A DNA stretch of 64,000 bases from Gemmatimonadota bacterium (GCA_009692185.1 SHZT01000009.1:49335-113334), one strand, 5' to 3'; numbered from the stretch's first letter, positions 5,500 to 63,664 are shown. The notes: a model not told the origin generated them from the letters alone. Numbers and translations: made by a program.

Positions 5500-6670
5500 A
5501 GGGCCCCAGCAACAAGGCCAACGCCAGCACGCCGCCAGCCAGGCCGCTCACGATGAGCGCCGCGGGCCCACCCATCCGCGCATACACCATCCCGAACGTG
5601 ATGCCTCCCAGAAGCCCGGCGATGCCCACGCTTGCGTGGTAGATGCCGAACGTCTTCCCCACGCCCCTGTCTCTCGCCGCGGCGGCCACGAGCGCCCGTT
5701 CCGGTGATTCCGTGAGCGCGGCCACCAGCCCGAACACGAGGAACCAGCCCACGCCGCTCCACGGACTCGTGATCGTGGCCATCGCCATGCACACGAGCCA
5801 GTACGCGAACCACCCGCCGAGCATCACGGACTTCGGGCCCAGGGAATCGGACAGCCGGCCGCCGGGATAACTCAGCGTCGTCCGAATGACATGCAACGCG
5901 GCCCATACGAGAGGGGTGAGGGCCACCGGCAGCCCCAGATCCTTCAGGCGCAGCAGGAACAGCATCTCGGGGAACCGGGCGAAGGCGAACAGGACGATGA
6001 GATAGAGGAGAGAGTTGGGCTGGCGTTTCGCGTTGTTCGGGAAGGGGGAAGCGGGAAGCGGGAAGGGGTTGTCCGCTTCCCCCTTCCCGCTTCCCGCTTC
6101 CCCTCTCACCGCCCAAAACACAGCCAACACCGCAATCAGTCCCGGCACCACGCTCCACACGATCACACGGTCCGGGGAAAGTCCCACCTGGCTCAGCAGG
6201 AGCCACGCCACCAGCGGTCCGACGACCGCGCCCGCGTGGTCCATGGCCCGGTGAAACCCGAACGCACGGCCGCGCATGTCGGGCGTCACGGCATCCGCGA
6301 TCACGGCGTCGCGCGGCGGCGTGCGTAAGCCCTTCCCGACGCGATCTGTCGCGCGGAGCGCGATCACCTGCCACGCGGCCGTGGTCGCGCCGATTACGGG
6401 CCGGGTCACCGCGGCGATGCCGTAGCCGGCGAGGATCAGCGGCCGGCGGAGCCGCGGGCGGTCCGCCAGGAATCCGGACCAGAGCTTGGCGGCGGCGGAC
6501 AGCGCCTCGGAGATCCCGTCGAACAGGCCAAGCGAGAGGGCGCCGCCACCCAGCGACGCCACGAGCGCCGGGATGAGCGGGTAGATCATCTCGCTGGCGA
6601 GATCGTTGAAAAAGGAGACGAGGCCCAGGGATTTGACGACGGGCGGGAGGCCCCGCTCCGATTCACTCAC
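5474..6670 (-). CDS. MFS transporter
   Basis: It has about 12 hydrophobic segments and MFS loop motifs (DRPRLRRPLIL, DRVGKGLRTPPRDA). The central loop carries the repeat-derived insert GEAGSGKGEADNPFPLPASPFP. Confidence 0.85.
   Translation of the reverse strand: MSESERGLPPVVKSLGLVSFFNDLASEMIYPLIPALVASLGGGALSLGLFDGISEALSAAAKLWSGFLADRPRLRRPLILAGYGIAAVTRPVIGATTAAWQVIALRATDRVGKGLRTPPRDAVIADAVTPDMRGRAFGFHRAMDHAGAVVGPLVAWLLLSQVGLSPDRVIVWSVVPGLIAVLAVFWAVRGEAGSGKGEADNPFPLPASPFPNNAKRQPNSLLYLIVLFAFARFPEMLFLLRLKDLGLPVALTPLVWAALHVIRTTLSYPGGRLSDSLGPKSVMLGGWFAYWLVCMAMATITSPWSGVGWFLVFGLVAALTESPERALVAAAARDRGVGKTFGIYHASVGIAGLLGGITFGMVYARMGGPAALIVSGLAGGVLALALLLGPSSKEPAAT
6045..6103. repeat. perfect 24-bp inverted repeat with 11-nt loop, built of GGGAAGC heptamers, inside the MFS CDS
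   Basis: GGGGAAGCGGGAAGCGGGAAGGGG (6045-6068) pairs with CCCCTTCCCGCTTCCCGCTTCCCC (6080-6103). The arms are exact reverse complements (hand-checked). Confidence 0.9.
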
Positions 6671-8285
6671 CGAGTCCCATGCCCCACTTGATCAAACTCA
6701 CCGGCAAGCCACCGTACGCGAGGGCCGCATCGTGGAACCCCCGCAGGGAATAGGCCGAGCCCCGGGCCGCCTTGTACGCCTCGCGGAGCGCCCGGAATTC
6801 CCTCCGCCCCACAGCATAACAGAGCTGGTAGCCTGGAGTCCCGCAGTATCGCCGGACTTCTGCCTCGGCATTGTGGCGGTCGAAGTGCACGCGGTCCACC
6901 AGCATCTGGACCGCCTCGTGAAACGTCATGCCCCGCGTGTGGAGCCCGACGTCCAGCACGATGCGCACCGCCCGCCACATCAGGTGGACCCGCTGGAAGA
7001 AGCGCTCCTCGCGCCCGTAGAACCCTTCCTCGCCCATCATCTCTTCGCAGTACAGCGCCCAGCCTTCGATCGTCAGCGGAGTCCCCACGACGCGCCGAAC
7101 GAGGCGCGGTTGCGCCAGGGCCGTGAGAAACTGGAGGTGGTGACCGGGATACCCCTCGTGGAGCGCGGTGGAGGCCAGCTCGTGCACGCAGTGATCCCGC
7201 AGGATGCGCTCGCTCACCGCCGGGTCGGTGTCCCGGTCCGGAGGAGTCACGAAGAACCTCCCGGTGCGATCCGCGGAAAAAGCCCCCGGCGGCTGATAGG
7301 CCGCGAAGGGCATGAGCGGCTTGAGGAACGCCGGTGTCTCGATGACATCGAGCGGCCCACGCGGAATGGCCACGAGTTTCTCGGCCTCGACGAACTTGCG
7401 GGCCCGGGCCATTTGCCGGCCGTACGCACCGACCAGCTCATTCGCTCCGGGGTGCTCGGCCCGCAACCGGTCCACCAGCTGGGGCCATTTGACGCTGGGG
7501 TCAATCTCCTTCCCCAGGCGCACGAGATCCTGCTCCACCTCTTCGACGAGGTTGGTGCCATACCGCCACAACTCGGGCGCGGTGTCCCGCAAGGCGTGCT
7601 CGTAGTGCAGGCGAAAGTTGAATGCGTCCTCACCGATGGCGAACTCGCCGTTCGCAGACCGCCGGAGGTCATCACCGAGGTAGCGGCCGAACGATGCGAG
7701 TGACGCCTTCGCCTGCGCGACCGTGTCCTGAAAGCCGGGCTCGCTCTTCGGGGCCAGTTGCTCGCTCACCTGGTCCAGCAAGAGTTGCCCACCCCCAACC
7801 ACCGACAGGGCGGTGTCCACGAATACCTGCGGGCAGTCCGCCAGCGTCGCCTTGGCCAACTCGAAGAACTGGGGGACCGCTTCCAGCCGCGCCCGCGCGG
7901 AGCGCGCTCGATGCTCGTGCGGCCGGTCGGTCAGGGCGAGCAGGTGATACAGACCTTCCAGGACGTGGTTGAGCCAGAAACCGGGGTCGGTGACGTGCGG
8001 CTGTTCGATGGTGAACCGCTGGACGGTGACTCGCACGTCGTTGAGCAACGCCGTCCGGTCAATCTCGTCGTCTATGGAGTCGGGTTCCAGCGCCTCGAGC
8101 GAACCGGCGAGCGACTTGAGCGCCACCATGTGCAGCCGGACGCTTTCCTCCGAGTAGTCACCCAGCCGTCCGTCGTGCTCGGTGAGCCCCTGCGCCGTGG
8201 CGAACACCGGGTCCAGGTGCCACCGCAGGTCGAGGTACGAGGGGAAAATCCCCGCGAGACTAGTGTCGTCCGCCAACGCCGGCAC
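6663..8285 (-). CDS. DUF885 family protein (metallopeptidase-like)
   Basis: LHEGYPGHHLQ and GYQLCY motifs, and a size of about 540 aa, are typical of DUF885. Confidence 0.75.
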   Translation of the reverse strand: MPALADDTSLAGIFPSYLDLRWHLDPVFATAQGLTEHDGRLGDYSEESVRLHMVALKSLAGSLEALEPDSIDDEIDRTALLNDVRVTVQRFTIEQPHVTDPGFWLNHVLEGLYHLLALTDRPHEHRARSARARLEAVPQFFELAKATLADCPQVFVDTALSVVGGGQLLLDQVSEQLAPKSEPGFQDTVAQAKASLASFGRYLGDDLRRSANGEFAIGEDAFNFRLHYEHALRDTAPELWRYGTNLVEEVEQDLVRLGKEIDPSVKWPQLVDRLRAEHPGANELVGAYGRQMARARKFVEAEKLVAIPRGPLDVIETPAFLKPLMPFAAYQPPGAFSADRTGRFFVTPPDRDTDPAVSERILRDHCVHELASTALHEGYPGHHLQFLTALAQPRLVRRVVGTPLTIEGWALYCEEMMGEEGFYGREERFFQRVHLMWRAVRIVLDVGLHTRGMTFHEAVQMLVDRVHFDRHNAEAEVRRYCGTPGYQLCYAVGRREFRALREAYKAARGSAYSLRGFHDAALAYGGLPVSLIKWGMGLGE

Positions 8286-9522
8286 CCGTCTCCAACGTGG
8301 CTTCGTTCACGATCCGGTGACACTCGGCCTCCGCCAGCGTGCGATCGGCCGCCTTGGCTGCCGCGAACAGGCGATCGCACACGACCGCGTCGCCAGCATC
8401 GTAGCCATGCTCTTCCAGCCAGCACTTCACGTTCGAGAGTCCCGAGACCGGGGATATCTTGATGCGCTGCTTCAACCCGAACGCCGTGGCCGGGACGGCC
8501 GAGTAGATCCGGTCCGCCAGCCACGCGTCGCCCTTTTTTCGCGCCTTGATGATCGCCGCGGCGTGGACACCGGTGCCCGTGCGGAACGCGTCGGAGCCGA
8601 GCACCGGGTAGTTGGCCGGTAGCGGCACTCCGATCGTGGCCGCGGCCAGCTCGCAGTACTCGCGGAGGCGCGATACGTCGTGCTGATGAGCACCCAGCAG
8701 GTACAGGTTGACGATGAGCAGGTCCATCTCCGCGTTGCCGACCCGCTCGCCCACGCCCAGGGCCGTGCCGTGGATCCGGTTGGCACCGGCGCGAATCGCC
8801 GCGAGGCAGTTGATGAGCCCCAGGCCGCGGTCACGATGCCCGTGCCAGTCAACCTTTACGTCTTCGCCTGAGGGTTTCACGATCTCCTCGATCACGAACC
8901 GCACCAGGCGGTGCGTGCCTTCCGGCGTCGCGTGGCCGACGGTGTCCGCGAGGCAAAGGCGCCGGGCGCCCCAGCGAATGGCGTTGCCGTAGAGCGCCGT
9001 GAGCGTCTCCGGCCGGGCGCGGGTCGAGTCCTCGGCCACGAACATCACCGGGAGGCCTTCGCGCACCGCGAACGTCACGGCCTCTTCGCTGACCCTGAGC
9101 ATCCGCTCCAGCGTCCAGTCCTCGGTGTACTGGCGAATGGGCGATGAGCCGATGAACGTCGCCGCCTCGATGGGGATGCCGACATCGTGGGAAATCTGCG
9201 CGATCGGCTCGACGTCGCTGAGCACCGTGCGCGCGGCGCAGTTCGGCGAAATGGGGATCTTCTCCCGAACGATCTCCTTGGCCAGCGCGCGGACCGAATC
9301 CACCACACGGGGGCCGGCACCCGGCAGGCCGATATCCGCCGAGGCGATCCCCAGGTCGGCCATCAGGTGCAGGAGTTTGAGCTTGACGTCGAGCGGGGGG
9401 TCGATCGCGGAAGGAGACTGGAGGCCGTCGCGCAGGGTCTCGTCATTCAAGTCAATGCGGACGGACTTCCAGTCGAAGCCGGCGTCCGAATTCCAGTCGT
9501 AGATCAGCTGGGATTCGTCCAT
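8260..9522 (-). CDS. isopropylmalate/homocitrate/citramalate synthase family protein (HMGL-like, short form)
   Basis: Motifs are LNDETLRDGLQSP and HGHRDRGLGLINCLAAIRAGANRIHGTALGVGERVGNAEMD. The start is chosen at MDESQLIY (9522) rather than the ORF start 9693. The canonical leuA lies elsewhere (46893..48554). Confidence 0.7.
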   Translation of the reverse strand: MDESQLIYDWNSDAGFDWKSVRIDLNDETLRDGLQSPSAIDPPLDVKLKLLHLMADLGIASADIGLPGAGPRVVDSVRALAKEIVREKIPISPNCAARTVLSDVEPIAQISHDVGIPIEAATFIGSSPIRQYTEDWTLERMLRVSEEAVTFAVREGLPVMFVAEDSTRARPETLTALYGNAIRWGARRLCLADTVGHATPEGTHRLVRFVIEEIVKPSGEDVKVDWHGHRDRGLGLINCLAAIRAGANRIHGTALGVGERVGNAEMDLLIVNLYLLGAHQHDVSRLREYCELAAATIGVPLPANYPVLGSDAFRTGTGVHAAAIIKARKKGDAWLADRIYSAVPATAFGLKQRIKISPVSGLSNVKCWLEEHGYDAGDAVVCDRLFAAAKAADRTLAEAECHRIVNEATLETGAGVGGRH

Positions 9523-9597
9523 TGGCGAAGTCTGCGGCCCGCCCACGGGGGCGTCAAGCTTGCCGGGTGCGCCCGTCGCCCGCCAATTTCCTTCCCC

Positions 9598-10791
9598 ATG
9601 ACCGACACCATTTCCGCTTTGTCCCGCCACCCGGCGCTCACCCGCGGTCACGAACGCCTGATTCGCACAGACGCCCGCACCGTCGCGTGGCAAACGGCGA
9701 TCTGCGAGACGCCCGCGCCAACTGGCCGGGAACAGGCCCGGGGCGCCAAGGTCTCCGGGTTACTGCGCGAGATCGGCTTGACGTCGGTGTCCACTGACGA
9801 CGTCGGCAACGTGATCGCGTGGTGGGGTCCCGCGGACCGGGCCCCGGTGGTCATCGCCGCGCACCTCGACACCGTATTCGGCCCCGGGGTAGATGTGTCA
9901 GTTCGAAAGGACGGCGACCGGCTTATCGGGCCCGGCATTACAGACAATGCGCGCGGCCTGGCCGGCATGCTCGCCCTGGCCGATGTCGTGGCGTCGGGCC
10001 AATGGGCGACCGCGAAGCCCATCGCTTTCGTCGCCACGGTCGGCGAGGAAGGCGCGGGCGACCTGCGTGGCGTGCGGCATCTCTTTGGCGAACGGAAGCT
10101 CGCGGCGGATTCGGTCATCGTGCTGGACGGCGCCGGCGACGACCGCGTGGTCCATGGCGGCCTGGGGTGCCGCCGCTATCGGTTCATGTTCCGTGGCCCC
10201 GGCGGCCACTCGTGGTCCGCATTCGGCGCGCCGAACCCGGCCCACGCGGCGAGTACGCTCACGCAGGCCGTGGCCGAACTGCCCGGCAGGGAAACGCCGC
10301 GTACGACCTGCTCCGTCGTGGGAATCGGCGGCGGAACCAGCCTCAACTCAATACCCGATGAGGCATGGGTCGAAATTGACCTTCGGAGCGAGGGCACCGC
10401 GCCGCTTGAGGAGATCGAACGCGTGCTCCACGCCGCGGCCCGGCTCGGAATGGATCGTGAAAATGCCCGAAAAACGCTGGGGAGCCGAGCGCTCGACCTG
10501 ACCGTGGCGGTCATCGGAGATCGGCCCTCCGGCGTGACACCGGCCGACCACCCGCTGGTGCAGGCTGGTCTGGATGCCACGCGCGCAGTCGGCCGGCGGC
10601 CGGCGCTCGCGACTGCCTCCACGGACGCCAACATTCCGATTTCCCTGGGAATTCCGGCGATCGCGTTGGGGGCCGGCGGCAAAGCCGGAGACACGCACAG
10701 CGCAACGGAGTGGTTTGAGAATGCCGATGGACCGGCGGGAATATTTCGGGCGTTGCTGGTGCTGGCCGCGGCTGCCGGGCTCAACAAATGA
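9598..10791 (+). CDS. M20/M25/M40 family metallopeptidase
   Basis: The sequence shows ..VVIAAHLDTVF..., GITDNARG and GEEGAGDLRG metal-ligand context. The start is chosen at MTDTISAL (9598). Confidence 0.8.
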   Translation: MTDTISALSRHPALTRGHERLIRTDARTVAWQTAICETPAPTGREQARGAKVSGLLREIGLTSVSTDDVGNVIAWWGPADRAPVVIAAHLDTVFGPGVDVSVRKDGDRLIGPGITDNARGLAGMLALADVVASGQWATAKPIAFVATVGEEGAGDLRGVRHLFGERKLAADSVIVLDGAGDDRVVHGGLGCRRYRFMFRGPGGHSWSAFGAPNPAHAASTLTQAVAELPGRETPRTTCSVVGIGGGTSLNSIPDEAWVEIDLRSEGTAPLEEIERVLHAAARLGMDRENARKTLGSRALDLTVAVIGDRPSGVTPADHPLVQAGLDATRAVGRRPALATASTDANIPISLGIPAIALGAGGKAGDTHSATEWFENADGPAGIFRALLVLAAAAGLNK

Positions 10792-10814
10792 GAAGTAAGA
10801 AGTGAGAAGTAAGA
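10789..10814. repeat. left 26-bp terminal inverted repeat of the four-helix-bundle cassette
   Basis: TGAGAAGTAAGAAGTGAGAAGTAAGA. Its first three bases are the stop codon of the M20 peptidase gene. Confidence 0.9.
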
Positions 10815-10819
10815 CGGAG

Positions 10820-11176
10820 TTACTCGCGTCGAACCTTCTTCAGCAAACCCATCACCAACGCCTGACTCTCCCGTGCCGTGGCAACGGCCTTCGCCACCAC
10901 GTCACCCGGCACGAGTTGGGACTCCTCGAGGAGCTCCAAGAGGTCAGATGTTTCCACCGCGGAACCGTAGGCAATCACGAGATGGTTTCTGAAGCGACGC
11001 GATGAGCGTACGGCGTAGCCTTCGGCAATGTTCAATTGCACGGACAGGGCGGCACGCTGAAGCTGGTTGAACACCGCCGACGCCGACGGCTGCCAATGCT
11101 TGCGGCAGAGTTCCAGCACCTGCAGAACCACCGCGTGCGCCCGCTGCCACGCCAAGAGCGTCTTGTGGGTCTGCAT
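10820..11176 (-). CDS. four-helix-bundle protein (23S rRNA intervening-sequence protein / Avd-like family)
   Basis: The translation is MQTHKTLLAWQRAHAVVLQVLELCRK...QLQRAALSVQLNIAEGYAVRSSRRFRNHLVIAYGSAVETSDLLELL. The NIAEGY..R and A.GS..E signatures are typical of this family. Confidence 0.85.
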   Translation of the reverse strand: MQTHKTLLAWQRAHAVVLQVLELCRKHWQPSASAVFNQLQRAALSVQLNIAEGYAVRSSRRFRNHLVIAYGSAVETSDLLELLEESQLVPGDVVAKAVATARESQALVMGLLKKVRRE

Positions 11177-11250
11177 TTCACGAGAGTAATCACCGAGCCG
11201 TGGCAGGAGAGGAGCGAACAAACGCGGGGTGGAGCGAAAAAGCGCGACTT

Positions 11251-11276
11251 TCTTACCTCTCACTTCTTACTTCTTA
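11251..11276. repeat. right 26-bp terminal inverted repeat of the four-helix-bundle cassette
   Basis: TCTTACCTCTCACTTCTTACTTCTTA. Its reverse complement matches the left repeat at 24 of 26 positions. Its last three bases are the stop codon (TAA on the minus strand) of the nucleotidyltransferase gene. Confidence 0.9.
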
Positions 11277-12257
11277 GGGCGCCTTCGCTACCTCGCCCCT
11301 GGTCACGATCATCCGCTTGAGTTTCTGACCAATCACCTCCGAACCTGGTCCCACCAGGCACTCCTCCAGCGTGGAGCCGACGATCTTCGCACCTTCGCCT
11401 ATGATCGTGTCCCGGAGCACGCTGGTCATGACGACCGACCCCGGCTCGATGGACACGTTGGGCCCCAATGTGCAATCCTCCAGTTCGACGCCATCCGCCA
11501 CAAACACAGGGTCGAGTATGCGAACCTGCGCGCGGGGGCTCGGACGCTTCGCACTACCATGGCTCAACAGGTGCAGGTTGGTCTCCAGCACGGTCTCGAT
11601 CTTGCCGCAGTCATACCAGCCGGCGACCGGCGCCGCGAGGATCTTCCGACCGTGATCCACCATGTGCTGGAAGGCCTCGGTGAGGTAGAACTCGCCCTTC
11701 ATGGGCGGCTGTGACCTGGTCCAGGCAATCCCGTCGAACAGCGCCTTCCAATCCTTCATGTAGTAGAGGCCGATGTTGGCGAGCTTGGAAATGGGCTCTT
11801 TCGGCTTCTCGACAATCTTCGTCATGTACCCGTGCGCGTCCGTCACCACCACGCCGAAGCGCTGGTAGTCCTCCACTTCCTTGGCCCAGATGATGCCGTC
11901 GGCCTCGGTGCGCTGGATGAGGGAAAGATCGGCGTCGAAGAGGGTGTCTACGAAAATGATGAGGACGGGCCCGCTGACGTACGAGCGGGCGAGGTCAATC
12001 GCGCTCGCGGTGCCGTCCTGCACCCTCTGCTCGATGAACCGTGCCGGCTGGCGGTAATGCGTCCGGACGTACGCCTCGACCTGCTCCTTCAAGTGCCCGG
12101 TAATAAAAATCAGCTCTTCGACGTCGAGCTGATTCACCTGATCCATGACGTAGTCCATCACCGGGCGCCCGGCGACGCGAATCAGCGGCTTGGGAATCTC
12201 TTTGGTGAGCGGGAGCAGGCGGGTGCCTTTCCCCGCCAGCGGAATAATGACCTTCAC
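11274..12257 (-). CDS. sugar-phosphate nucleotidyltransferase (NTP-transferase domain plus hexapeptide-like C-terminus)
   Basis: N-terminus is MKVIIPLAGKGTRLLPLTKEIPKPLIRVAGRPVMDY. Confidence 0.8.
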   Translation of the reverse strand: MKVIIPLAGKGTRLLPLTKEIPKPLIRVAGRPVMDYVMDQVNQLDVEELIFITGHLKEQVEAYVRTHYRQPARFIEQRVQDGTASAIDLARSYVSGPVLIIFVDTLFDADLSLIQRTEADGIIWAKEVEDYQRFGVVVTDAHGYMTKIVEKPKEPISKLANIGLYYMKDWKALFDGIAWTRSQPPMKGEFYLTEAFQHMVDHGRKILAAPVAGWYDCGKIETVLETNLHLLSHGSAKRPSPRAQVRILDPVFVADGVELEDCTLGPNVSIEPGSVVMTSVLRDTIIGEGAKIVGSTLEECLVGPGSEVIGQKLKRMIVTRGEVAKAP

Positions 12258-15565: not shown

Positions 15566-16821
15566 ATGCGTGTTCCACACTGGTTTCTCCTCGCCGCCCT
15601 CGCCGCGGCCCCGGGCTCATCTGTTTCGGCCCAGCAGGGCGCTCTCACGGACACCTCGATCGCGGCCCGGCTGGAAAAAGCCGAACGCATGATCGAACTG
15701 CTGCGCCAGCAGGTAGCCGAACAGGCGAAGGGACGGGTTGAACCCCGGTCGGGCAACAAGGTCGAGCTGTCGGGAGTGGTCCTGATCAACGGGTTCTTCA
15801 ACAACGCCAAGGTGAACAGCGCCGACAACCCGACGTTCGTACAGGCGCCGGACCCGCCGGGATTCCTGCCGAACTCGAACCTGGGAGGCACCGCCCGCCA
15901 ATCAGAGTTCGGGCTCACGGCCATCGCTCCCAAGGTGATCGGGGCGACATTCACTGGAGAGCTGGACATGGACTTCTACGGCGGCCAGCAGAACTTTGGC
16001 CGCCTGTTTCCCCTGCTCCACCTGAAACGCACCCGTGGGGAGCTCCGCTGGCCGCATGCCTGGCTCGCCTTTGGCGAGGATGCGCCGCCGATCTCGGAGG
16101 TCAACCCGTCTTCCTTCTCGGCTCGCAGCATTCCAGGGTTTACCAACGCGGGGAACCTGTGGTTCTGGATTCCCCAAGTCCGTCTGGGCGCGGACGTGGG
16201 AACCACCGTCAGCGTCGGGCTCGAGGCGACGGCGATGGCGCCGATCTCCACCGAGACGCCGGCCACTTTCAACCCCGCGCCGAGCGCAGCCGCCGGCCGT
16301 CGGCCGAGGGCCGGCTGCTGGTCAAGTGGGACCAGCCCCAGTCCACCGGCGAGATTTCCGTGGGCGGGCACTACGGCTGGATCGCGACGACCGCGCTCGA
16401 CACGTTCATCGTGTCCCGGGCGGTCGCGGCGAGCATCCGCTTCAGCGTCACCGGATTGTTCGAGGTCCGTGGCGAAGCGTTCGCCGGCCAGGCCCTGGCC
16501 GGCCTTGGCGGCGGCGGGATCGGGCAGAACCTCAACGCCGCGGACGCGCCCGTGCGCACCCGGGGCGGCTGGGCCCAACTCAACATCAAGCCAACGCCCG
16601 AATTCGAATTCGGCGGGGGCTACGGATTCGACGATCCGACCGACAGCGACCTGGACCTGGCTACCGGGCGGCTCAGGAACGTGACGATGGAGGGGCACCT
16701 CCACTATACGCCCGGTCCGGTCGTGTTCGCGGTGGAGTTCCGCCGGGTCGAAACGACGTATTCGACGCTCGGGACACTCTTCGTCCATCACTTCAATGTG
16801 GGGATGGGGTTTCGGTTCTAG
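15566..16821 (+). CDS. outer-membrane porin-like beta-barrel with N-terminal coiled coil; apparent frameshift near 16295
   Basis: It has the signal peptide MRVPHWFLLAALAAAPGSSVSAQQ and the coiled coil IAARLEKAERMIELLRQQVAEQ. Alternating beta-strand sequence follows and ends in the terminal ...FNVGMGFRF. The first part is in the frame of 15491..16684 and the second in the frame of 16159..16821. Confidence 0.65.
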
Positions 16822-16823
16822 GG

Positions 16824-16899
16824 TAAGAAGTGAGAGGTGAGAAGTAAGAAGGAGAGCCGCCACCTTCTTGCTTCTCACTTCTTACGTCTTACTTCTCAC
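16824..16899. repeat. cargo-less hairpin of the same GAGAAGT/AAGAAGT repeat family (about 28-bp stem, 11-nt loop)
   Basis: TAAGAAGTGAGAGGTGAGAAGTAAGAAGG-AGAGCCGCCAC-CTTCTTGCTTCTCACTTCTTACGTCTTACTTCTCAC. Hand pairing gives 24 Watson-Crick pairs, 3 G-U pairs and 1 mismatch. It lies between the porin stop and the TPM gene start. Confidence 0.85.
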
Positions 16900-16915
16900 T
16901 ATCTTTCCCGGCGCG

Positions 16916-17716
16916 ATGATCTTCCCCGTACTCGCTCTCGCCATCCAAATCCAGCTCACAGCGCCGTCGGGCTACGTCAACGACTTCGCCGGCGTGCTCG
17001 AAGGCACGTCGCGCGCCGCGATAGTCGCGCTGATCGACGAGGTGCGGCAGAAGTCGGGCGGTGAAATCGTCGTGGTGACCCTCCGGGACCTGGGTGGCCG
17101 CGCTTCGATTGACGTCGCGCGGGACATCGGCCGGCAGTGGAAGGTCGGGGCGATGGGCGGCCCCGGAGACCGCGCCCGGAACGCCGGCGTCGTCCTCCTG
17201 TTCAAGCCCGGCGGGCGACCGGGAGACGGGCAGGCGGACATTGCCATCGCTACCGGCACCGGCACCGAAGGGTTCGTCACCGACGCGCTGGCCGGGCGAA
17301 TACGCGATGCCATCGGCCGGCAATCGGTCGAAGCAGGCAGCTACGCCGAGGGGTTGCCCGTGGGCGTCGCCATGCTCGCCCGGGCCTATGCCACCGAGTT
17401 CGGGTTCGAGTTGACCGGCGCGGCGGCCGAGCAGATTCCGGAAGGTGGTGGAAGAATCACCATCCCCGGTCCGTTCGCCGTTCTGATCGCGCTTTTCGTG
17501 TTCATCATGTTCGTGTCGATTGTCCGGCAACTCGCGCACCAGCGGGGCGGCTCGTTCCTCGGCACGCTTTTCTGGATCGCCATGAGTCAGCAGGGGCGTC
17601 GCGGCGGCTGGGGTGGCGGGCGTGGCTGGGGTGGCGGCGGAGGCGGGGGTGGAGGCTTCGGTGGTTTCGGTGGCGGCGGCGGCTTCGGTGGCGGCGGCGC
17701 ATCGGGGAGGTTCTGA
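16916..17716 (+). CDS. TPM (TLP18.3/Psb32/MOLO-1, YgcG-like) domain protein with Gly-rich tail
   Basis: Contains SGYVNDFAGVLEGTSRAAIVALIDEVRQKSGGEIVVVTL, then a TM segment, then GGWGGGRGWGGGGGGGGGFGGFGGGGGFGGGG. The start at 16916 lies just beyond the hairpin repeat. Confidence 0.8.
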   Translation: MIFPVLALAIQIQLTAPSGYVNDFAGVLEGTSRAAIVALIDEVRQKSGGEIVVVTLRDLGGRASIDVARDIGRQWKVGAMGGPGDRARNAGVVLLFKPGGRPGDGQADIAIATGTGTEGFVTDALAGRIRDAIGRQSVEAGSYAEGLPVGVAMLARAYATEFGFELTGAAAEQIPEGGGRITIPGPFAVLIALFVFIMFVSIVRQLAHQRGGSFLGTLFWIAMSQQGRRGGWGGGRGWGGGGGGGGGFGGFGGGGGFGGGGASGRF

Positions 17717-45463: not shown

Positions 45464-46893
45464 GCGGCCACGCGCGCCAGTATGGTGCGGGGGTCGGTCA
45501 CCACTCCGGTCACCGCAGTAGCGGCGGCGGTCAGCGGGCTCGCCAGCAGCGTCCGTGCGCCAGGCCCCTGCCGCCCCTCGAAGTTCCGGTTGCTGGTCGA
45601 GACTGCCAGCCGCCCCGGTCCCACCCGGTCGTCGTTCATAGCGATGCACATCGAACAGCCCGCCTCGCGCCACTCGGCGCCGGCGTCCCGGAACACGCGA
45701 TCGAGACCCTGCAACTCCGCCGCCCGTTTCACCTGTTGAGAGCCGGGAACCACCAGCATGCGGACGCCATTTGCGACCCGGTTTCCCCGCAGGACTCGAG
45801 CGGCCGCCGCGAGATCGGACAGCCGCGAGTTCGTGCAGCTGCCGAGGAATACAATGTCCACCGGCGTGCCGGCCAGCGCCTGGCCGGGCCGGAATCCCAT
45901 GTAGGTGAGTGCGCGTGACAGGCTCTCCCGCTCCCGTTCATCCTTTGCCTCGGCCGGATCGGGAATGAGCCCGTTCACCGGAATACTCATGCCGGGATTC
46001 GTCCCCCACGTGATCATCGGCGCCAGGGCCTTGGCATCCAGGTGGACGTGCCGGTCGTACACCGTGCCGGCGTCGGTGGACAGCAGGCGCCAGTCCGTCA
46101 CGGCCCGCTCGAACGCCGCGCCCTTCGGCGCGGCAGGGCGGCTCGCCAGGTACTCGAACGTCGTATCGTCCGGGGCGACCATGCCCGCCCGTGCGCCCGC
46201 CTCGATGGACATGTTGCAGAGGGTCATCCGCTCTTCCATCGAAAGCGACCGGATGGCTTCCCCGTTGTACTCCAGCACGTGACCCGTGCCGCCGCCCACG
46301 CCGAGCCGGCCGATGATCGCGAGAATCAGGTCCTTGGCGGTGACGCCGGGGGCGAGCCGCCCGTCCACCCGGATCTCCATGGTCTTCGGACGGGTCTGCA
46401 AAAGGCACTGCGTTGCCAGGACGTGCGCCACCTGGGACGTGCCGATGCCGAACGCGAGCGCGCCGAATGCGCCGTGCGTGCTCGTGTGGCTGTCGCCGCA
46501 CACCACCACCATCCCTGGCTGTGTGAGGCCAAGCTCCGGGCCTATGACGTGCACGATTCCCTGGCGATCATCTCCCAGCGGGAAGAGCGGAATGCCGTGC
46601 TCGGAACAGTTCCGCGCGAGGTGATCGAGTTGAGACCTGGCGGCGTCATCCACCACTGTCAGGCGGCTAGCCCCCGGGGTGGTGGGCGTCGAATGGTCCA
46701 TCGTGGCGAGCGTTTGATCGGGTCGGCGAACCTTGAGACCGCGGGCCGCCAACTCGGCGAACGCCTGGGCGGACGTGACCTCGTGCACGAGGTGGAGGTC
46801 CACGTACAGCACGGCCGGCGTGTCCCTTGTCTCCGGCCGCACCAGATGGGCGTCCCACACCTTGTCGAACAGCGTTCGCGGTGCCGCGCCCAT
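45460..46893 (-). CDS. leuC: 3-isopropylmalate dehydratase large subunit
   Basis: The aconitase-family motifs are [30 protein letters not shown] and CSMCIAMN. Confidence 0.95.
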
Positions 46894-48554
46894 TACGGTG
46901 CGGCGGCCGGCGCGGGGACCCCGGGAGCCCCGGGCTCACGCCCGGGGTTAGCTGGACTCACCCCGGGGCTGGCTGACCCCGGGCGTAAGCCCGGGGCTTG
47001 CGAGGATCCCGCAGCCGCGTCCCGCGCGGCCAGCAGGTGGTTCAGCGCCGATACGTACGCCTCCGCCGACGCGGTCACAATGTCTGCCTGAACCCCGTGC
47101 CCCAGGTACACCACCCCGGTATGGAAATCGCGCACCCGCACGGTCACCCGTCCCACGGCATCGATACCCTCGGTCACCGCGTGCACCTGGAACTCGCACA
47201 GTTGTCCCAGCTCACCCAGCACGCCGTTGACCGCGCGGCACACGGCATCCACCGGCCCATCCCCCGTTCCCGAGGCCGTGGCCAGCGACCCGTCGGGGCA
47301 ACGCATGCGCACCGTTGCCGTCGGGATTGTATGTGTGCCGCACGTGACCTGGGCCTGGTCCAGTTCATAGCGGCCGGAAGACCCCTCCGGCGCGCCGCCC
47401 GCGAGCGCGCGAAGGTCGCGGTCGTCGAGCACCTTCTTCCGGTCGGCGAGCGCCTTGAACCGGTCGAACACCGCGCGAAACGGCTCGTCGTCCAATTCGA
47501 TACCAAGCTCACACAGCCGTTTCCGGAGCGCGGCGCGGCCGGAGTGCTTGCCCAGGACCAGCAGGCTCCCGTCTCCCCCCACTGATTCCGCCGTCATGAT
47601 TTCGTAGGTCGCGCGGTGCTTGATCACCCCATCCTGGTGAATCCCGGCCTCGTGGGCAAAAGCGTTGGAGCCGACCACGGCCTTGTTGGGCGGCACGTAC
47701 ACGCCCGTGCACGCCGACACGAGGCGGGACGTCCGGGCGATTTCCTGCGTCGCGATACCCGTGTCCACGCTGAAGTAGTCCGGCCGCGTGGCAATCGCCA
47801 TGACGACTTCCTCGAGTGAGGCGTTGCCGGCGCGCTCCCCGATCCCATTCACGGTACACTCCACCTGGCGGGCACCCGCCCGCACACCGGCCAGTGAATT
47901 AGCGACGGCCATGCCAAGGTCGTCGTGGCAATGGGTGGACACCACCACGCCGGGGTGCTTCGATGCCTGCGCCACCACGCGCTCGATGAGGAAACCGTAC
48001 TCGGCGGGAGTCAGGTAGCCCACCGTGTCCGGAATGTTGAGCGTCGTCGCGCCGGCCTCGATTACCGCCGCCAAGACCTCCGACACAAACCCCCAATCGC
48101 TGCGGCCGGCATCCTCCGGCGAGAACTCCACGTCATCAACGAACGTGCGAGCCAGCGTCACGGCGTCCGCCGCACGCCGGAGCACTTCTTCCCGGGTCAG
48201 GCGCAGCTTGTGCTTGAGGTGAATATCGGAAGTGGCAATGAACGTGTGGATGCGCCGCCGGCTGGCATCGCGGATGGCGGCCGCGCAGGTCGCGATGTCT
48301 CTCTCGGCCGTACGGGCGAGGCCGCACACGATGGGCCCGCGAGCGGAACCCACCCGCTGGGCGACGGCGCTGACCGCGTCCACCTCCCCGGCCGACGCCG
48401 CCGGAAACCCAGCCTCGATCACATCTACGCCCAGCCGCGCCAACTGCTCAGCCACTTTCAGCTTTTCCGGCAGGGTCATGGTGCAGCCCGGGGCTTGCTC
48501 CCCGTCCCGCAGGCTCGTGTCGAAAATCCGGACTCGGCCCCGCACTTCGCTCAT
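46893..48554 (-). CDS. leuA: 2-isopropylmalate synthase with repeat-encoded C-terminal extension
   Basis: Contains [35 protein letters not shown] and a LeuA dimerisation/regulatory domain. The last 40 or so residues (..[38 protein letters not shown]) are read through palindromic repeats. Confidence 0.9.
46919..46996. repeat. cluster of CCCCGGGC-NNNN-GCCCGGGG palindromic hairpins (REP-like)
   Basis: The hairpins are at 46928-46947 (loop TCAC) and 46977-46996 (loop GTAA), with a CCCCGGGG palindrome at 46961-46968. The 46977-46996 copy is the exact reverse complement of 28582-28601. Confidence 0.85.
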
Positions 48555-51707: not shown

Positions 51708-52240
51708 TTGTGGTCCGTGGGAGCGCCGGCCAGCAACTGAACGGCGTGCTCGATGAGCGGCTCGAGGACGGTCAGCCCTTCCTTCACGCCTGACGGACTT
51801 CCGGGGAGGTTGACGATGAGCGCCTGGGCCCGCGTTCCCGCCAGCCCGCGGGACAACGCGCTGCGCGGCGTGTTCGCCTGCCCCGCCGCCCGAATGGCCT
51901 CGGCAATGCCGGGGGCCTCGCGCTCGATCACCGCCCGGGTGGCTTCGGGCGTGACGTCCCTGGGAGACAATCCGGTACCGCCAGTGGTCAGGATCACCTG
52001 CGCCACGTCGTCATCCGCCCAGCGGGAAATAACGGAGGCGATGCGGTCGGTTTCATCCGGCACGACTTCGCGGGCGGATACCTCGTAGCCGCGGGCGGCC
52101 ACCCAGTCGGCGATGGCCTTGCCGGACGTGTCCTCTCGCTTCCCCTGGAAGCCGAGGTCGGAAATGGTGAGCACAGCTACTCGAACCGGAGGGCGTCGCA
52201 CGGCCGCCGTACTTTTCCCTTTTCCCTTTTCCCTTTTCAC
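51704..52240 (-). CDS. mog: molybdopterin adenylyltransferase / MoaB-Mog family
   Basis: Contains [27 protein letters not shown] and NLPGSPSGV. The called GTG start (52240) reads [10 protein letters not shown] from the heptamer repeat. The real start may be an internal GTG (..AVRRPP). Confidence 0.8.
52212..52239. repeat. (CTTTTCC)n heptamer tract, which reads (GGGAAAA)n on the coding strand, at the gcvT/mog junction
   Basis: There are three exact heptamers and one partial copy. Confidence 0.9.
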
Positions 52241-53352: not shown

Positions 53353-54299
53353 CGTGTTTTGCTTTTCCCTTTTCCCTTTTCCCTTTTCCCGCTTCTCGAT
53401 CCGCCCATCAACGTCGCCATCAACGCTTTCTGCACGTGAAGCCTGTTCTCCGCCTGGTCCCACACCCGGGAATGCGAACCTTCCATTACCTCGTCGGTGA
53501 CTTCCTCCCCACGGTGTGCGGGCAGGCAGTGAAGAAAAATGGCGTTCTTTGCGGCGAGCCCCATGAGATTGTCGTCCACCATGTATCCGTGAAACGCCAG
53601 CCGCCGTGCTTCGGCTTCCGCTTCCTGGCCCATCGAAGCCCAGACATCCGTGTTGATCACGTGCGCTCCCCTGGCTGCCTCTTCGGGCTCCTCGGTCACG
53701 GATACGTCGGCTCGAGACTTGGCCCACTCGAAAATCTCCCGGTTGGGCTCATAGCCCTCCGGGCAGGCGATGCGCAGGGTAAACCCCAGCTGGCCGGCCG
53801 CCTGCAACCACGTGTTGGCCATGTTGTTCCCGTCGCCGATCCACGCCACGACCTTGCCCTTCCAGCCGCCCAGGCATTCGCGCACCGTCAGGAGATCCGC
53901 GAGCACCTGGCAGGGGTGCAAGAGGTCCGTGAGTCCGTTGATGACCGGTACGGCCGCGTGACGGGCTAGGTCCTCGACCTCGTCGTGCGCATACGTCCGG
54001 ATGACGATCCCGTTCAGGTAGCGTGAGAGCACCCGCGCGGTGTCACGGATCGGCTCTCCCCGGCCCAGCTGGAGGTCACGAGACGAGAGGAACATGGGGT
54101 GCCCGCCGAGCTGATAGGTGCCCACCTCGAACGACACCCGGGTCCGCGTGCTGCTCTTGGCGAACAGCATCCCCACGGCCTTGCCGGCCAGTGGCCTGGC
54201 CAGGTACTTCCCCGCCTTCATCGCGGCCGCCATGTCCAGCACGGCCCCGATTTCCTTCGGGGAAAAGTCCGTCAGTGCGAGAAAGTCCCGTTTAGGCAT
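53349..54299 (-). CDS. argF: ornithine carbamoyltransferase
   Basis: Contains STRTRVSFE, HPCQVLAD, DVWASMGQE and HCLPAHRGEEV. The start is chosen at MPKRDF (54299). Confidence 0.9.
   Translation of the reverse strand: MPKRDFLALTDFSPKEIGAVLDMAAAMKAGKYLARPLAGKAVGMLFAKSSTRTRVSFEVGTYQLGGHPMFLSSRDLQLGRGEPIRDTARVLSRYLNGIVIRTYAHDEVEDLARHAAVPVINGLTDLLHPCQVLADLLTVRECLGGWKGKVVAWIGDGNNMANTWLQAAGQLGFTLRIACPEGYEPNREIFEWAKSRADVSVTEEPEEAARGAHVINTDVWASMGQEAEAEARRLAFHGYMVDDNLMGLAAKNAIFLHCLPAHRGEEVTDEVMEGSHSRVWDQAENRLHVQKALMATLMGGSRSGKREKGKGKSKTR
53354..53397. repeat. (CTTTTCC)4 heptamer tract, which reads (GGGAAAA)4 on the coding strand, at the argF/gcvT junction
   Basis: Four exact heptamers span 53362-53389, flanked by degenerate copies. 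They are translated as the argF tail [14 protein letters not shown]. Confidence 0.9.
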
Positions 54300-58149: not shown

Positions 58150-58171
58150 CTCTCTCCCGTAAGCATAACCG

Positions 58172-59119
58172 CTATGCCCGTGGGTGCGCCTGATGATAGA
58201 CCTTTTTCAGGCGCTCCACGCTCGTGTGTGTATAGATCTGGGTCGTCGAAAGCGATGCGTGTCCGAGAAGCTCCTGCACGGCACGCAGGTCGGCCCCGGC
58301 ATCGAGCATGTGGGTCGCGAAACTATGCCGCAGGCTGTGCACCCGGAGCCCCGCGCTGTCCGCGAGCCCCTCCAGCATGTGGCGCACGATCGCCTGCACG
58401 CCCCGGACAGAGAGGCGCCTGCCTCTTTGCGAAAGAAACAGCGCCCGTGGGTCGGCTTTCCCCTGCTCCACATCATGCGCGAGCACTTGTCGTTCCCCGT
58501 GGTACGCCCGGAGGGCCTGCACTGCCCTGCTCCCAAGAGGCAGGATGCGTTCTTTCCGGCCCTTGCCACGCACCTTCACCTGGTCCGACACCAGGTCAAG
58601 ATCGGCGAGGCTGATCCCCGCCAGCTCGGACAGTCGCATGCCGGTTCCATAGAACAGCTCGAGCATGGCCAGGTCCCGGGTGCCCCGGAATCCGCCGCCC
58701 ATGGCCCTGGTTTCCGCCGAGTGGAATAACGCATCGACCTGGTTCCGGTCCATGAGCACGGGCAGGCGCCGTTCGAGCTTGGGTGTCCGAACCGCCAGGG
58801 CCGGGTTCACGCTCACACCATGCCGCACGGCCAGGAACCGGTAAAACGTCCGCAGGGCCGACAACGCCCGCGCAACCGATCGCTTGGCCAAGCCCTGGCG
58901 CTGGAGCTCACCCATGAAGCTCCGCACCGCCAAGCGGTCCACGGTGGGCCACTGCCACGCGGGCCCGCCGAAGTAGCCGTCACAAAACGCCTGGAAGTGT
59001 CCCAGGTCTCTACCGTAAGCAGCGACCGTGTTCGGCGAGTCGTTCCGCTCCTTCGCGAGAAACGCTATGAACTCGAGGATCTCTCCCCGGGGCTCCGCCG
59101 CCGTCGCCCCCGGGCTCAT
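58172..59119 (-). CDS. xerC: tyrosine recombinase XerC/XerD
   Basis: Contains [35 protein letters not shown]. Its position in a conserved topA-trmFO-xerC-hslVU context fits. Confidence 0.9.
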
Positions 59120-60504
59120 GCGGGTACCGCCCCGGCCTGTTCGACGAACGAGCGCATCGCGGCGAGCGCCCGGTCTGCGAAACGCTCCCGTTTCTTGTCC
59201 TTGTCCTTCACGCGCTCGGGCAGGTCGGGCAGCAGGCCGAAGTTTGCATTCATCGGCTGAAAATGCGCCGGATCCGCCTCGTGTACGTACCGGAGTAGTG
59301 CGCCCAGCATCGTCTCGGGCGGCGGGACCACGGCCGGGACGCCCGAGAGCATTCGCGAGAGATTGATCCCCGCGAGCAGCCCCGTACCCAGCGACTCGGT
59401 GTACCCCTCTACCCCCACCAACTGGCCGGCGAACAGCACCCGGTCGTCATCGCGCGTGGAGAGGTGGGCCGTCAGCGCGGCTGGCGAATTCACGTACGTG
59501 TTCCGGTGAATGCTGCCGTACCGCAGAAACTCGGCATTGGCCAATCCTGGAACCATGGCCAACACGCGCCTCTGCTCGGGAATCTTCAGCCGCGTCTGGA
59601 ACCCAACGAGGTTCCACATCTGCCCCGCCCGGTCATCCTGACGGAGCTGCACGACCGCATAGGGCTCCCGTCCCGTGCGCGGGTCGGGCAGGCCCACCGG
59701 CTTCATCGGCCCGAACCGGAGCGTTTCCCTGCCTCGCCGCGCCATTTCTTCGACCGGAAGGCATCCTTCGAAGTAGGGGATAGCGGGAGAGGCAGCGGTG
59801 GCAGGTGGGGCAGAAGATGCCTGCCCCTGCTGCCTCACCTGCCCCTCCTGCGGCAGTTCGTCGAAATCGTGTCCTTCGAATTGGTCAGCCGCAATCAACG
59901 CGTTAACGAACGCCTCGTACTCATCCTTCGAAAAGGGCGCGTTGATGTAGTCGTCTCCGCCGCCTTTGCCGTAGCGCGACAGGCGGTACACCCGGTCCAG
60001 GTCGAGCGATTCGTGGGAGACAATCGGGGCGATCGCGTCGTAAAACGCGAGGGCGTCCAGGCCGAGGCGCGCGCGAATCACCTGCGCCAGCCGATCTGAC
60101 GTAAGCGGCCCCGTCGCGATGACCGCGGGAGACGGAAGTTCGGCTATTTCCCCCCGGACAATCTCGATGTTAGGGTGACCCGAGATCCGCTTCGTCACGT
60201 CGAGACTGAACACGTCGCGGTCCACCGCCAGGGCCGACCCCCCGGGCACTCGCGCGCGGTCCGCCGCGTCGAGGAGGAAACTCCCGAGCAGGCGCAACTC
60301 GGCCTTGAGCAGGCCGTGCGCGTTGGTCAGCTCGACGGACTTGAACGTGTTGCTGCAGACGATCTCGGCGAGATGGTCAGTCTGGTGCGCGGGCGTCCGG
60401 ACAAGCGGACGCATTTCGTGCAGCGTAACCCTGTGCCCCCTGGTGGCCAGGGCCCAGGCGGCCTCGCAGCCCGCCAGCCCCCCACCCACGACGGCCACCC
60501 TCAC
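59116..60504 (-). CDS. trmFO: methylenetetrahydrofolate--tRNA-(uracil-5-)-methyltransferase TrmFO
   Basis: Contains VAVVGGGLAGCEAAWALA and FAGQLVGVEGYTESLGTGLLAG. It holds a low-complexity insert, PQEGQVRQQGQASSAPPATAASPAIP. Confidence 0.9.
   Translation of the reverse strand: MRVAVVGGGLAGCEAAWALATRGHRVTLHEMRPLVRTPAHQTDHLAEIVCSNTFKSVELTNAHGLLKAELRLLGSFLLDAADRARVPGGSALAVDRDVFSLDVTKRISGHPNIEIVRGEIAELPSPAVIATGPLTSDRLAQVIRARLGLDALAFYDAIAPIVSHESLDLDRVYRLSRYGKGGGDDYINAPFSKDEYEAFVNALIAADQFEGHDFDELPQEGQVRQQGQASSAPPATAASPAIPYFEGCLPVEEMARRGRETLRFGPMKPVGLPDPRTGREPYAVVQLRQDDRAGQMWNLVGFQTRLKIPEQRRVLAMVPGLANAEFLRYGSIHRNTYVNSPAALTAHLSTRDDDRVLFAGQLVGVEGYTESLGTGLLAGINLSRMLSGVPAVVPPPETMLGALLRYVHEADPAHFQPMNANFGLLPDLPERVKDKDKKRERFADRALAAMRSFVEQAGAVPA
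59789..59855. repeat. imperfect inverted/direct repeats of GGGGCAG/CTGCCCC units inside trmFO
   Basis: The sequence is AGGCAGCGGTGGCAGGTGGGGCAG ... CTGCCCCTGCTGCCTCACCTGCCCCTCCTGCGGCAG. CAGGTGGGGCAG against CTGCCCCTCCTG pairs at 11 of 12 positions. Confidence 0.7.
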
Positions 60505-63099: not shown

Positions 63100-63630
63100 T
63101 TACCACCCGCCTGCGGACCGCGCAAGCGCAACCACTTCCATGGCAACCGCTTCCGGCGTCCTCTCGTCCGTCTTGACGACGCCGTCCGCCCGTTCGTAGA
63201 ACGCCCGTCTTGCCGCAAACAAGGCGCGCATCGTCTCGTAGGGGTCGCCGCCAACAAGCAGGGGCCGGTGGCCCTGGGACGCCGTGCGCTGGCCTGCCGT
63301 CTCGGGCGCTGTGTCGAGATACACCGTCAGGACCAGGCCCTGCACCTGTTCCAACGCGCCCGCCTGGGCCGCCCAGCCCCCACCCGGCGCGATCACTCCG
63401 GGCGCCGCTTCCATGAGTCGCTCCACCTGCGCCCGCTCCAGCAGCCGGAATGCCGTTTCGCCGCGTTCCGCGAAGAGTTTCGAAACCGTTCGGTGCTCGT
63501 CCCGCTCGATCAGCTCGTCAACGTCCGAGAACGCCGCGCCCAACGACCGGGCCACCAACGCTCCCACCGTCGTCTTTCCCGCTCCGGGAAGCCCCACAAG
63601 CATTACGTGTCGCCGTGGTGTCTTCTGCAC
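63100..63630 (-). CDS. aroK: shikimate kinase
   Basis: Contains VMLVGLPGAGKTTVG (Walker A), DVDELIE and GGG. GTG 63630 or ATG 63603 is the start. Confidence 0.85.
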   Translation of the reverse strand: MQKTPRRHVMLVGLPGAGKTTVGALVARSLGAAFSDVDELIERDEHRTVSKLFAERGETAFRLLERAQVERLMEAAPGVIAPGGGWAAQAGALEQVQGLVLTVYLDTAPETAGQRTASQGHRPLLVGGDPYETMRALFAARRAFYERADGVVKTDERTPEAVAMEVVALARSAGGW

Positions 63631-63664
63631 TTGTTCCCTGTCCCTCGTCCCTTGTCCCCTCTTG
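63631..63664. repeat. heptamer tract, GGGACAA/GGGACGA/GGGACAG/GGAACAA on the coding strand, filling the aroC-aroK spacer
   Basis: The plus strand reads TTGTTCC CTGTCCC TCGTCCC TTGTCCC CTCTTG. It lies exactly between the aroC stop (63665-63667) and the aroK GTG (63630). Confidence 0.85.

Follow-up and report, generated by a model that had tools for sequence, protein, structure and literature searches.

Intervening-sequence-type palindromic elements built of heptanucleotide repeats outside rRNA in a Gemmatimonadota genome

The closest known relative of the elements described here is the intervening sequence (IVS) in the 23S rRNA of Coxiella burnetii, a type that also exists in Leptospira as an IVS carrying an open reading frame (ORF). 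In C. burnetii the IVS measures 428-444 nt, is closed by a 28-bp terminal stem and holds an S23p ORF in its loop; two to three tandem GACAGAT heptamers plus one degenerate copy precede the ATG, their number varies between strains, and RNase III cuts at the first heptamer repeat (PMC4990558). Here we analyze a 64,000-nucleotide stretch of DNA from a Gemmatimonadota bacterium (GCA_009692185.1, SHZT01000009.1:49335-113334; 66% G+C), hereafter the window, in which a first-pass annotation made from the sequence alone had listed nine places with short tracts of a repeated 7-nt unit (8-nt in one case). What we report is IVS-type palindromic elements located outside rRNA and built of heptanucleotide repeats that were already known but unexplained. 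The complete form, at 10789-11276, has the architecture of an ORF-carrying 23S rRNA IVS and lies between protein genes. The “23S rRNA intervening-sequence protein” family to which its gene belongs is very widespread and has had structures solved, and we know of no function for it.

The likeness to the Coxiella IVS extends to size (488 bp in the window against 428-444 nt), to terminal inverted repeats with a stem of about 24-28 bp, to a loop ORF of the S23p/PF05635 family, to tandem heptamers, which in Coxiella occupy the 5' part and vary in copy number, and to a sporadic presence consistent with insertion. Unlike the IVS, which sits in helix 25 or 45 of 23S rRNA, the window element lies outside rRNA, between a peptidase and an NTP-transferase gene; shorter forms occur inside coding sequences; both arms are wholly heptamer arrays and give the neighboring genes their stop codons; the gene is under purifying selection here and decaying in Coxiella; and RNase III cleavage has been demonstrated for the rRNA elements only (PMC4990558).

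Tandem 7-nt units in about four or more copies, intergenic or sometimes intragenic, often beside start or stop codons and with no explained function, are also what characterizes the heptanucleotide long simple sequence repeats (SSRs) and the short tandemly repeated repetitive (STRR) sequences. In cyanobacteria, heptanucleotide tandem repeats have reportedly been known since 1990. Besides the cyanobacterial STRR, published examples include GGGAATC in Xanthomonas (Rehm 2015, PMC4692102), where 70-75 convergent inverted heptamer pairs were noted, four copies of GGACCGG in Geobacter metallireducens (PMC2700814), and TAACTGA in Beggiatoaceae, whose arrays are laid out like the single arrays of the window, on the sense strand upstream of starts (PMC4679880). 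The window tracts consist of head-to-tail 7-nt copies, at least about three to four of them and above chance, and belong in this class, STRR being a descriptive class and not a homology family. They depart from the long SSRs in their units, which are different and not uniform within one genome; in the SSR papers the arrays figure as SSRs, G-quadruplex (G4) motifs or regulator sites, with no link to a four-helix-bundle gene or to IVS hairpins. The earlier remark that this is not a described repeat class has to be qualified accordingly, both for the long SSRs and STRR (PMC4692102, PMC2700814, PMC4679880) and for the tandem heptamers of the Coxiella rRNA IVS (PMC4990558). Our literature search, of incomplete coverage, found papers on heptamer repeats and papers on the protein family and none joining both beyond the Coxiella observation, and we assert no priority.

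Repetitive extragenic palindromic (REP) sequences, bacterial interspersed mosaic elements (BIMEs), REP doublets forming hairpins (REPINs) and the Rickettsia palindromic elements are short palindromes at 3' ends and between convergent genes; some of the Rickettsia copies lie in frame in protein genes and are translated, as happens here. The elements of the window differ from these in having no genome-wide conserved sequence, stems of tandem heptamers, and a larger form with a conserved gene that is not a transposase. At least six different units occur within 64 kb, so that the single dispersed conserved palindrome of REP/REPIN is absent, and no REP-associated tyrosine transposase (RAYT) was seen among the scanned ORFs of the window, the extent to which it was looked for. 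The inverted arms recall miniature inverted-repeat transposable elements, with no target-site duplication visible against the available relatives, which are of 64-74% identity. CRISPR was set aside, the units being contiguous and without spacers, and Rfam gave no rRNA or other family match anywhere in the window. The Avd accessory proteins of diversity-generating retroelements belong to the same four-helix-bundle superfamily and are pentameric and nucleic-acid binding (PMC10053308); unlike Avd, the cassette is adjoined by no reverse transcriptase or template/variable repeat pair, its flanks being M20 peptidase and NTP-transferase genes.

A gene-carrying cassette between protein genes

At each of the nine listed places the described repeats were present in the sequence, and Tandem Repeats Finder independently called period-7 arrays in the window. 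Using a strict criterion of at least 17 of 21 self-matches at a given lag, we found six period-7 tracts against 0.0 expected from 20 dinucleotide shuffles, a frequency beyond that given by composition. Periods 4-6, 10, 11 and 13 yielded no tract and periods 9 and 12 two each; the single period-8 tract is the 26.3-kb element, and the four period-14 tracts are a harmonic of 7. The excess extends to about 440 kb of related loci, introduced below, where period 7 accounts for 182 tracts and periods 4-6 and 9-13 for no more than 10.

Two of the tracts, real but missed by the first-pass annotation as belonging together, are the arms of one 488-bp palindromic cassette that carries a gene:

10789-10814, cassette arm, plus-strand reading TGAGAAG TAAGAAG TGAGAAG TAAGA; the 3' pyrimidine-rich arm on the gene's minus strand
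10820-11176, minus strand, four-helix-bundle gene in the cassette loop, 118 aa; ATG 11176-11174, stop 10822-10820
11251-11276, cassette arm, minus-strand reading TAAGAAG TAAGAAG TGAGAGG TAAGAA

We regard the arms as a single palindromic cassette with a gene in its loop because the segments 10791-10814 and 11251-11274 (24 nt each, 436 nt apart) are 96% complementary, a PF05635 ORF lies between them, and a 24-bp terminal stem closes the 488-nt RNA in both the minimum free energy and the centroid predicted structure (z = -3.3). On either strand, read 5' to 3', a purine-rich array comes first, followed by the gene loop and then the complementary pyrimidine-rich array. The first TGA of the left arm is the stop codon of the M20 peptidase gene (9187-10791, plus strand), and the TAA at 11276-11274 in the right arm is that of the NTP-transferase gene (11274-12257, minus strand). 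The loop protein matches Pfam PF05635 23S_rRNA_IVP (“23S rRNA-intervening sequence protein”, E 1e-19) and NCBIfam TIGR02436 (“four helix bundle protein”, E 3e-21). Its coding sequence (10823-11176) specifies a protein 100% identical to an NCBI ‘four helix bundle protein’ from a 416-kb contig of a Gemmatimonadetes metagenome-assembled genome (MAG), and the protein is related to PDB 2GSC (Xanthomonas XCC0516) and 2RLD; PADLOC returned no match for it.

A scan of the cassette with sigma-70 and terminator consensus sequences found nothing. When the upstream regions of 71 loci were aligned, a -10-like TANNNT box, 6 nt before the start codon of the loop gene, was found starting at -12 or -11 in 27 of them, together with a RAATTGG motif near -42, too far upstream for a classical -35 box. 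This alignment suggests that the loop gene may have an internal promoter and a near-leaderless mRNA. The spacing of the two motifs is unlike that of classical sigma-70 promoters and may reflect the promoter type of the group.

Comparison with syntenic regions from seven relatives, anchored on a neighboring protein kinase, showed that the complete form had been inserted at gene ends. At this junction the NTP-transferase and M20-peptidase genes converge, with a 4-nt overlap in relative L081 and spacers of 12 and 24 nt in L101 and L102; the 488-bp cassette occupies exactly this position in the window, and the junction is empty in these three relatives. The tail of the M20 peptidase changes from AAAAGQP* at the empty site to AAAAGLNK* with the cassette. 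Presence and absence are sporadic between relatives, and no target-site duplication is visible between the filled site and the available empty ones, which belong to relatives of 64-74% identity.

On both strands the element opens with its purine-rich arm, and most units carry TGA or TAA at period 7; whichever side a gene enters from, it therefore ends in the first or second unit. Across the elements as a whole, gene-like ORFs that enter an arm terminated inside it in 45 of 48 cases, mostly within the first 0-7 nt, against 66 of 919 at random control positions. The units follow the pattern G-[T/G]-[G/A]-A-N-N-R: a T at position 2 creates TGA or TAA, which at period 7 falls in all three frames, and a G at this position leaves the purine strand free of T, so that no stop can be coded on either strand. 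The stop-free units, with G for T, are those found inside coding sequences, where only this form can survive. Stops fall in all three plus frames at 10789-10814, in all three minus frames at 11251-11276, in all six frames at 16823-16900 and in five of six at 26297-26394; there are none in any frame at 6039-6107, 53354-53397 and 63631-63664. The first-pass annotation was right that stop-rich and stop-free versions both exist, and that the tracts lie at stop codons, gene junctions and tolerant protein loops. Its wording of no stop in six frames is accurate for several tracts but slightly overstated for 43536-63, 52212-39 and 59782-853, which have one stop each, in a non-coding frame or at the tract boundary.

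Cassettes in other genomes and the evolution of their arms

We fetched 80 loci encoding relatives of the cassette protein from Gemmatimonadales genomes, 74 of them with enough flanking sequence. A tandem-heptamer array was the best inverted repeat around the gene in about 65 of these 74, with units that vary by locus (GTGAGAG, GTGAACG, GTGAGCG, GGAGTGA, GGGAACT, GGGAGAC, GCGAACG and others). Stricter calls gave 77 inverted pairs, 71 purine-first and six pyrimidine-first. Five of these six, whose arms are 332-846 nt apart, seemingly match a pyrimidine arm with the purine arm of a neighboring element, and the sixth, in locus L042, has arms 55 nt apart and is left without explanation. The purine-first polarity is identical on both strands of the palindrome. 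Loop sizes are bimodal, with gene-less hairpins at 0-120 nt and gene-carrying cassettes at about 400-530 nt. Two loci display further layering: at 4288-4696 of L012, about 170 nt of CGGCTAT/CGGCTGT arrays are nested within GGAGTGA arms, and at 2659-2836 of L060 a heptamer block of about 62 nt is itself tandemly repeated.

Plasmid protein searches, one of them with the Xanthomonas structure sequence, returned homologues almost only from cyanobacteria, plus Gemmatirosa, whose cassette is an 8-mer version. Inverted heptamer or 8-mer arrays bracket 12-13 of the 16 cyanobacterial plasmid homologues inspected, with units such as (TAGGGAG)n, (GGGTGTA)n, (AGGTGAC)n, (AGGGAAC)n, (GGGAAAA)n and (AGTCAGG)n; in two of the rest an insertion sequence has cost the gene its upstream arm, one has direct arrays and one has no arrays. 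Locus L093, on a Pseudanabaena galeata plasmid, breaks the hairpin rule with long direct arrays, (AAAGCTA)n upstream and (AAAGCCA)n downstream. For Xanthomonas campestris, a published supplementary table contains a GGGAATC array that overlaps the annotated start of the crystallized family member, XCC0516; the paper itself makes no comment on it (PMC4692102). The cassette architecture is common to Gemmatimonadota and Cyanobacteriota, with a hint of it in Xanthomonas.

Cassettes were also observed between cas6/cas4, between cas10/cmr2 and cmr3, and between two ribonucleotide-reductase subunit genes, the loci being L088 (Anabaena sp. 90), L093, L090 (Picosynechococcus) and L086 (Nostoc edaphicum). 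The reported ‘cas association’ of PF05635 (PMC3936711, PMC10910872) may simply be such insertions, and cassettes inside cas and ribonucleotide-reductase operons call for caution in gene-neighborhood inference.

The arms co-evolve with each other and with a selected gene. Consensus units of the left and right arms are within one mismatch in 46 of 47 cassettes, and the unit distance (of seven positions) is 0 between cassettes whose proteins are at least 80% identical, 1.64 at 65-80%, 1.90 at 55-65% and 2.43 below 55%. The gene itself has a ratio of nonsynonymous to synonymous substitution rates (dN/dS) of 0.05-0.14, which denotes purifying selection. Since units are still identical in three cassette pairs with dS of 0.6-1.7, the unit sequence itself appears to be constrained, beyond mere pairing. 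The other tracts of a locus are nearer to the unit of their own cassette than to those of other loci (distance 2.07 against 2.72, with none of 2000 permutations reaching so low a value), and heptamer copy number differs between arms and between strains. The first-pass description of the units as locus-specific is correct in that they differ between loci, but unit families are common within a genome neighborhood and inherited with the gene, and a close relative may hold another unit at the same junction. Telomere-like repeat addition at the two 3' ends of a break would explain the purine-first polarity; we considered it and dropped it as the main idea, inheritance of the units together with the gene being at odds with it.

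Gene-less hairpins and single arrays of the window

Four further tracts of the window form hairpins with no gene in the loop:

6039-6107, GGGAAGC/GGGAAGG hairpin, 69 nt, in frame in the major facilitator superfamily (MFS) transporter gene 5474-6670 (minus strand), in the central cytoplasmic loop at about residues 188-211
16823-16900, GTRAGAR hairpin of the unit family of the cassette arms, beginning 2 nt past the TAG of 16159-16821 (plus strand)
26297-26394, 8-nt-unit hairpin (TAGACGGA, TAGGCGGA, TAGACAGG) enclosing an inner, terminator-like GC hairpin
59782-59853, GGCAGNN-type hairpin, 72 nt forming 24 in-frame codons of trmFO 59116-60504 (minus strand)

Their folding energies are -64 to -68 kcal/mol for the first, which has a stem of 24-30 bp, -47 kcal/mol for the second, -65 to -76 kcal/mol for the third and -49 to -51 kcal/mol for the last. 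The two hairpins within genes, in the MFS transporter and in trmFO, are both of the T-free unit type. In MFS orthologues this position is held by decayed versions, purine-rich at first and then proline-rich, and residues 218-241 of TrmFO have no counterpart in Thermus TrmFO (3G5Q); this tract is real as first listed but is better bounded at 59782-59853. The 26297-26394 hairpin lies between the convergent AhpC-like gene (TAG 26297-26299) and redoxin gene (TAG 26380-26378), with both stops in its arms.

The hairpin at 16823-16900, which ends 17 nt before the ATG (16918) of a TPM-domain gene, is preceded by a conserved stop (..GGTTCTAGGG) and followed by a conserved leader (TATCTTTCCC..ATG). In relative L082 (kinase 89% identical) a hairpin with these boundaries is built of GGTGCTC-type units instead; L081 and L101 have GGTGCGT-type elements at this junction, and three other relatives have none. 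The unit found here in the window, GTRAGAA, is that of the window's own cassette 5.5 kb away. Members of the 8-mer family TAGACGGN lie at 26297-26394 of the window and, in L081 and L101, at another junction. One element is composite: a short CCCCTCTCC hairpin precedes the heptamers GGGAGAG GGGACAG GGGTGAG, and the window, L082 (with two copies) and L002 carry it at sites that are not homologous.

The remaining tracts are single arrays:

43536-43585, minus strand, short hairpin (CCCCCTCTC / GAGAGGGGG) followed by GGGAGAG, GGGGACA and GGGGGTG, in the spacer upstream of pheA 42609-43514 (minus strand); dispersed family
52212-52238, minus strand, GGGAAAA-type array of about four heptamers, beginning at the TGA stop of gcvT, upstream of a MoCF-biosynthesis gene
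53362-53390, minus strand, GGGAAAA array of about four heptamers, ending about 10 nt upstream of the gcvT ATG (53352)
63631-63664, minus strand, array GGGACAA GGGACGA GGGACAG GGAACAA, between the aroC stop (63667-63665) and the aroK ATG (63602)

The last three have no inverted partner and are not hairpins. The first, listed earlier as a plain tract at 43.5 kb, is real but is actually a short hairpin with a heptamer tail. The array at 53362-53390 also encodes the C-terminal tail of an ornithine/aspartate carbamoyltransferase gene. The (GGGAAAA)4 arrays, about 27 nt each, bracket gcvT as direct repeats. Each of the window's four single arrays precedes a start codon and has its purine-rich strand as the sense strand; in the 80 loci the orientation counts are 3 against 1 between genes and 7 against 2 inside them, from crude gene calls based on G+C at third codon positions and with too few informative cases to carry the pattern beyond the window.

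Explanations weighed, and neighboring features

Taken together, we consider it probable, if well short of certain, that the tracts are arms or half-arms of one family of palindromic inserted elements with stems of tandem heptamers (sometimes 8-mers); the first-pass grouping into one family of 7-8-nt periodic elements is upheld. We infer that the gene-less hairpins (6039, 16823, 26297, 59782) and the single arrays (52212, 53362, 63631, 43536) are reduced or non-autonomous forms of the cassette. Concerted evolution, by slippage plus copying between arms, would account for the observed complementarity of the arms. By analogy with the Coxiella homologue, read-through transcripts would fold into a stem of 24-30 bp that RNase III could cut, which would separate the flanking messages and release the loop RNA. 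Our preferred guess is that new copies might arise when arrays of like unit recombine, a hairpin already in place acting as the landing pad. The model is testable, through RNase III processing and through binding of the protein to its own repeats, and the heptamer repeats and the IVS protein family, two old loose ends, are seemingly one phenomenon. For annotation, an element is often the source of a stop codon, a C-terminal tail or an in-frame loop insertion in genes of these genomes.

A bolder extension, which we put forward tentatively and think rather doubtful, is that the heptamer arrays are cognate nucleic-acid sites of the pentameric four-helix-bundle protein, and that the two together could constitute an element that propagates itself with no transposase; the gene-less hairpins and the single arrays would then be its non-autonomous offspring. 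Co-divergence of protein and unit, conservation of the unit beyond synonymous sites, genome-specific unit families and the cross-phylum architecture all fit this proposal. If true, it would explain the heptanucleotide excess known as STRR and from Xanthomonas, Geobacter and Beggiatoa, as well as the ‘cas-associated’ and rRNA-embedded copies of PF05635.

Several points weigh against the inserted-element reading or parts of it. Neither a transposase nor a target-site duplication was seen, so that mobility is deduced from presence and absence alone. Sequence comparison lends no support to a derivation of the gene-less hairpins from cassettes: with 24 family members as tblastn queries, the window and L081-L083 yielded no gene remnants in such hairpins, and their loops have no similarity to the sub-terminal sequences of the cassettes. 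The single arrays may be a functionally separate phenomenon. If the loop gene has its own promoter, its mRNA would lack the 5' arm and the stem would exist only in read-through RNA or in DNA. Arm mismatches on the gene's sense strand comprise 57 G-U against 38 A-C (p = 0.06), no significant bias, and RNA-level selection of the stem is therefore not demonstrated. RNase III cleavage at these elements would be an extrapolation from one distant homologue, and cutting of a long stem inside the MFS or trmFO mRNA would cost expression, which sits awkwardly with its persistence there.

The alternative that retains most is that the elements are host-selected cis-regulatory hairpins comparable to REP/BIME, which, from their place just past stop codons, block 3' exonucleases, insulate convergent transcription or terminate it, with purine arrays that tune translation initiation and the gene as an occasional passenger; we hold this possible, though unlikely. 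Such a role suits their position at 3' ends and operon junctions, the terminator-like GC hairpin wrapped by the 26.3-kb hairpin and the GC palindromes in several gene-less loops, the sense-strand purine-rich placement of four of four single arrays upstream of starts, as for TAACTGA in Beggiatoaceae (PMC4679880), and a unit more conserved than synonymous sites. Orthologous junctions manage without the elements, however, and two copies lie inside coding sequences. The gene is present in about 50-65 of 70-90 hairpin elements, in loci chosen for the gene, and its association with them across phyla exceeds what a passenger would show. A host function of this kind is compatible with inserted elements and not exclusive of them.

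Plain slippage, in which a polymerase favoring 7-nt slippage (a proposal of Mrazek and colleagues quoted in PMC4692102 and PMC4679880) would grow arrays in place, with inverted copies by template switching and neither mobility nor function, we judge improbable. Copy number does vary between arms and strains, also in Coxiella, and a heptamer excess is known in many genomes, but growth in place cannot produce a 488-bp element with a conserved gene, and some sites are empty. Slippage is equally at odds with the purine-first polarity (71 against 6), with identical complex unit orders at non-homologous sites, and with units that are conserved beyond synonymous sites and form families common to the loci of one genome; for the cassette it is largely refuted. 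It is very improbable that the repeats are G-quadruplexes, as proposed for Xanthomonas GGGAATC and Nostoc GGGGAYT: the GGGAAGC, GGGAAAA and GGGACAA arrays do offer four G-runs at period 7 (PMC4692102), but the commonest units, GTGAGAG, GTGAACG, GTGAGCG and GTRAGAA, have no G-runs, and each array has a perfect complement that favors a duplex hairpin. An assembly artefact is scarcely credible: the window does come from a MAG and hairpins and short repeats are prone to mis-assembly, but the same architecture recurs in dozens of independent short- and long-read MAGs, in the complete chromosome OZ252244 and in finished plasmids of cultured Nostoc, Calothrix, Anabaena and Gemmatirosa. As general explanations, slippage, G-quadruplexes and assembly artefact are rejected.

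Some other features of the window were noted beside these elements. The 15-mer repeat at 26850-26906 (minus strand), earlier counted in the family for its shared GGATAGG, is a coding repeat outside the heptamer class that encodes TIALS-TIALS-TIAS, the hydrophobic core of the redoxin signal peptide (start ATG 26956). A palindrome of another, non-heptamer kind at 46912-47012 consists of nested CCCCGGGC-NNAC-GCCCGGGG hairpins (about -119 kcal/mol over 150 nt) and is in frame in the last 40 or so codons of ORF 46893-48554 (minus strand); the same 20-nt motif at 28582-28601 resembles an intrinsic terminator. The 3' end of the TPM-domain ORF 16868-17716 contains G-rich coding repeats of period 9/18 (GGCGGGGGT) at 17601-17699. 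Finally, the AhpC/BCP-like peroxiredoxin ORF 25721-26299 (plus strand) is interrupted by a single in-frame TGA where the catalytic cysteine would stand (..FFFRARTRG*TIQMHAY..), which may be a selenocysteine codon rather than the mark of a pseudogene.

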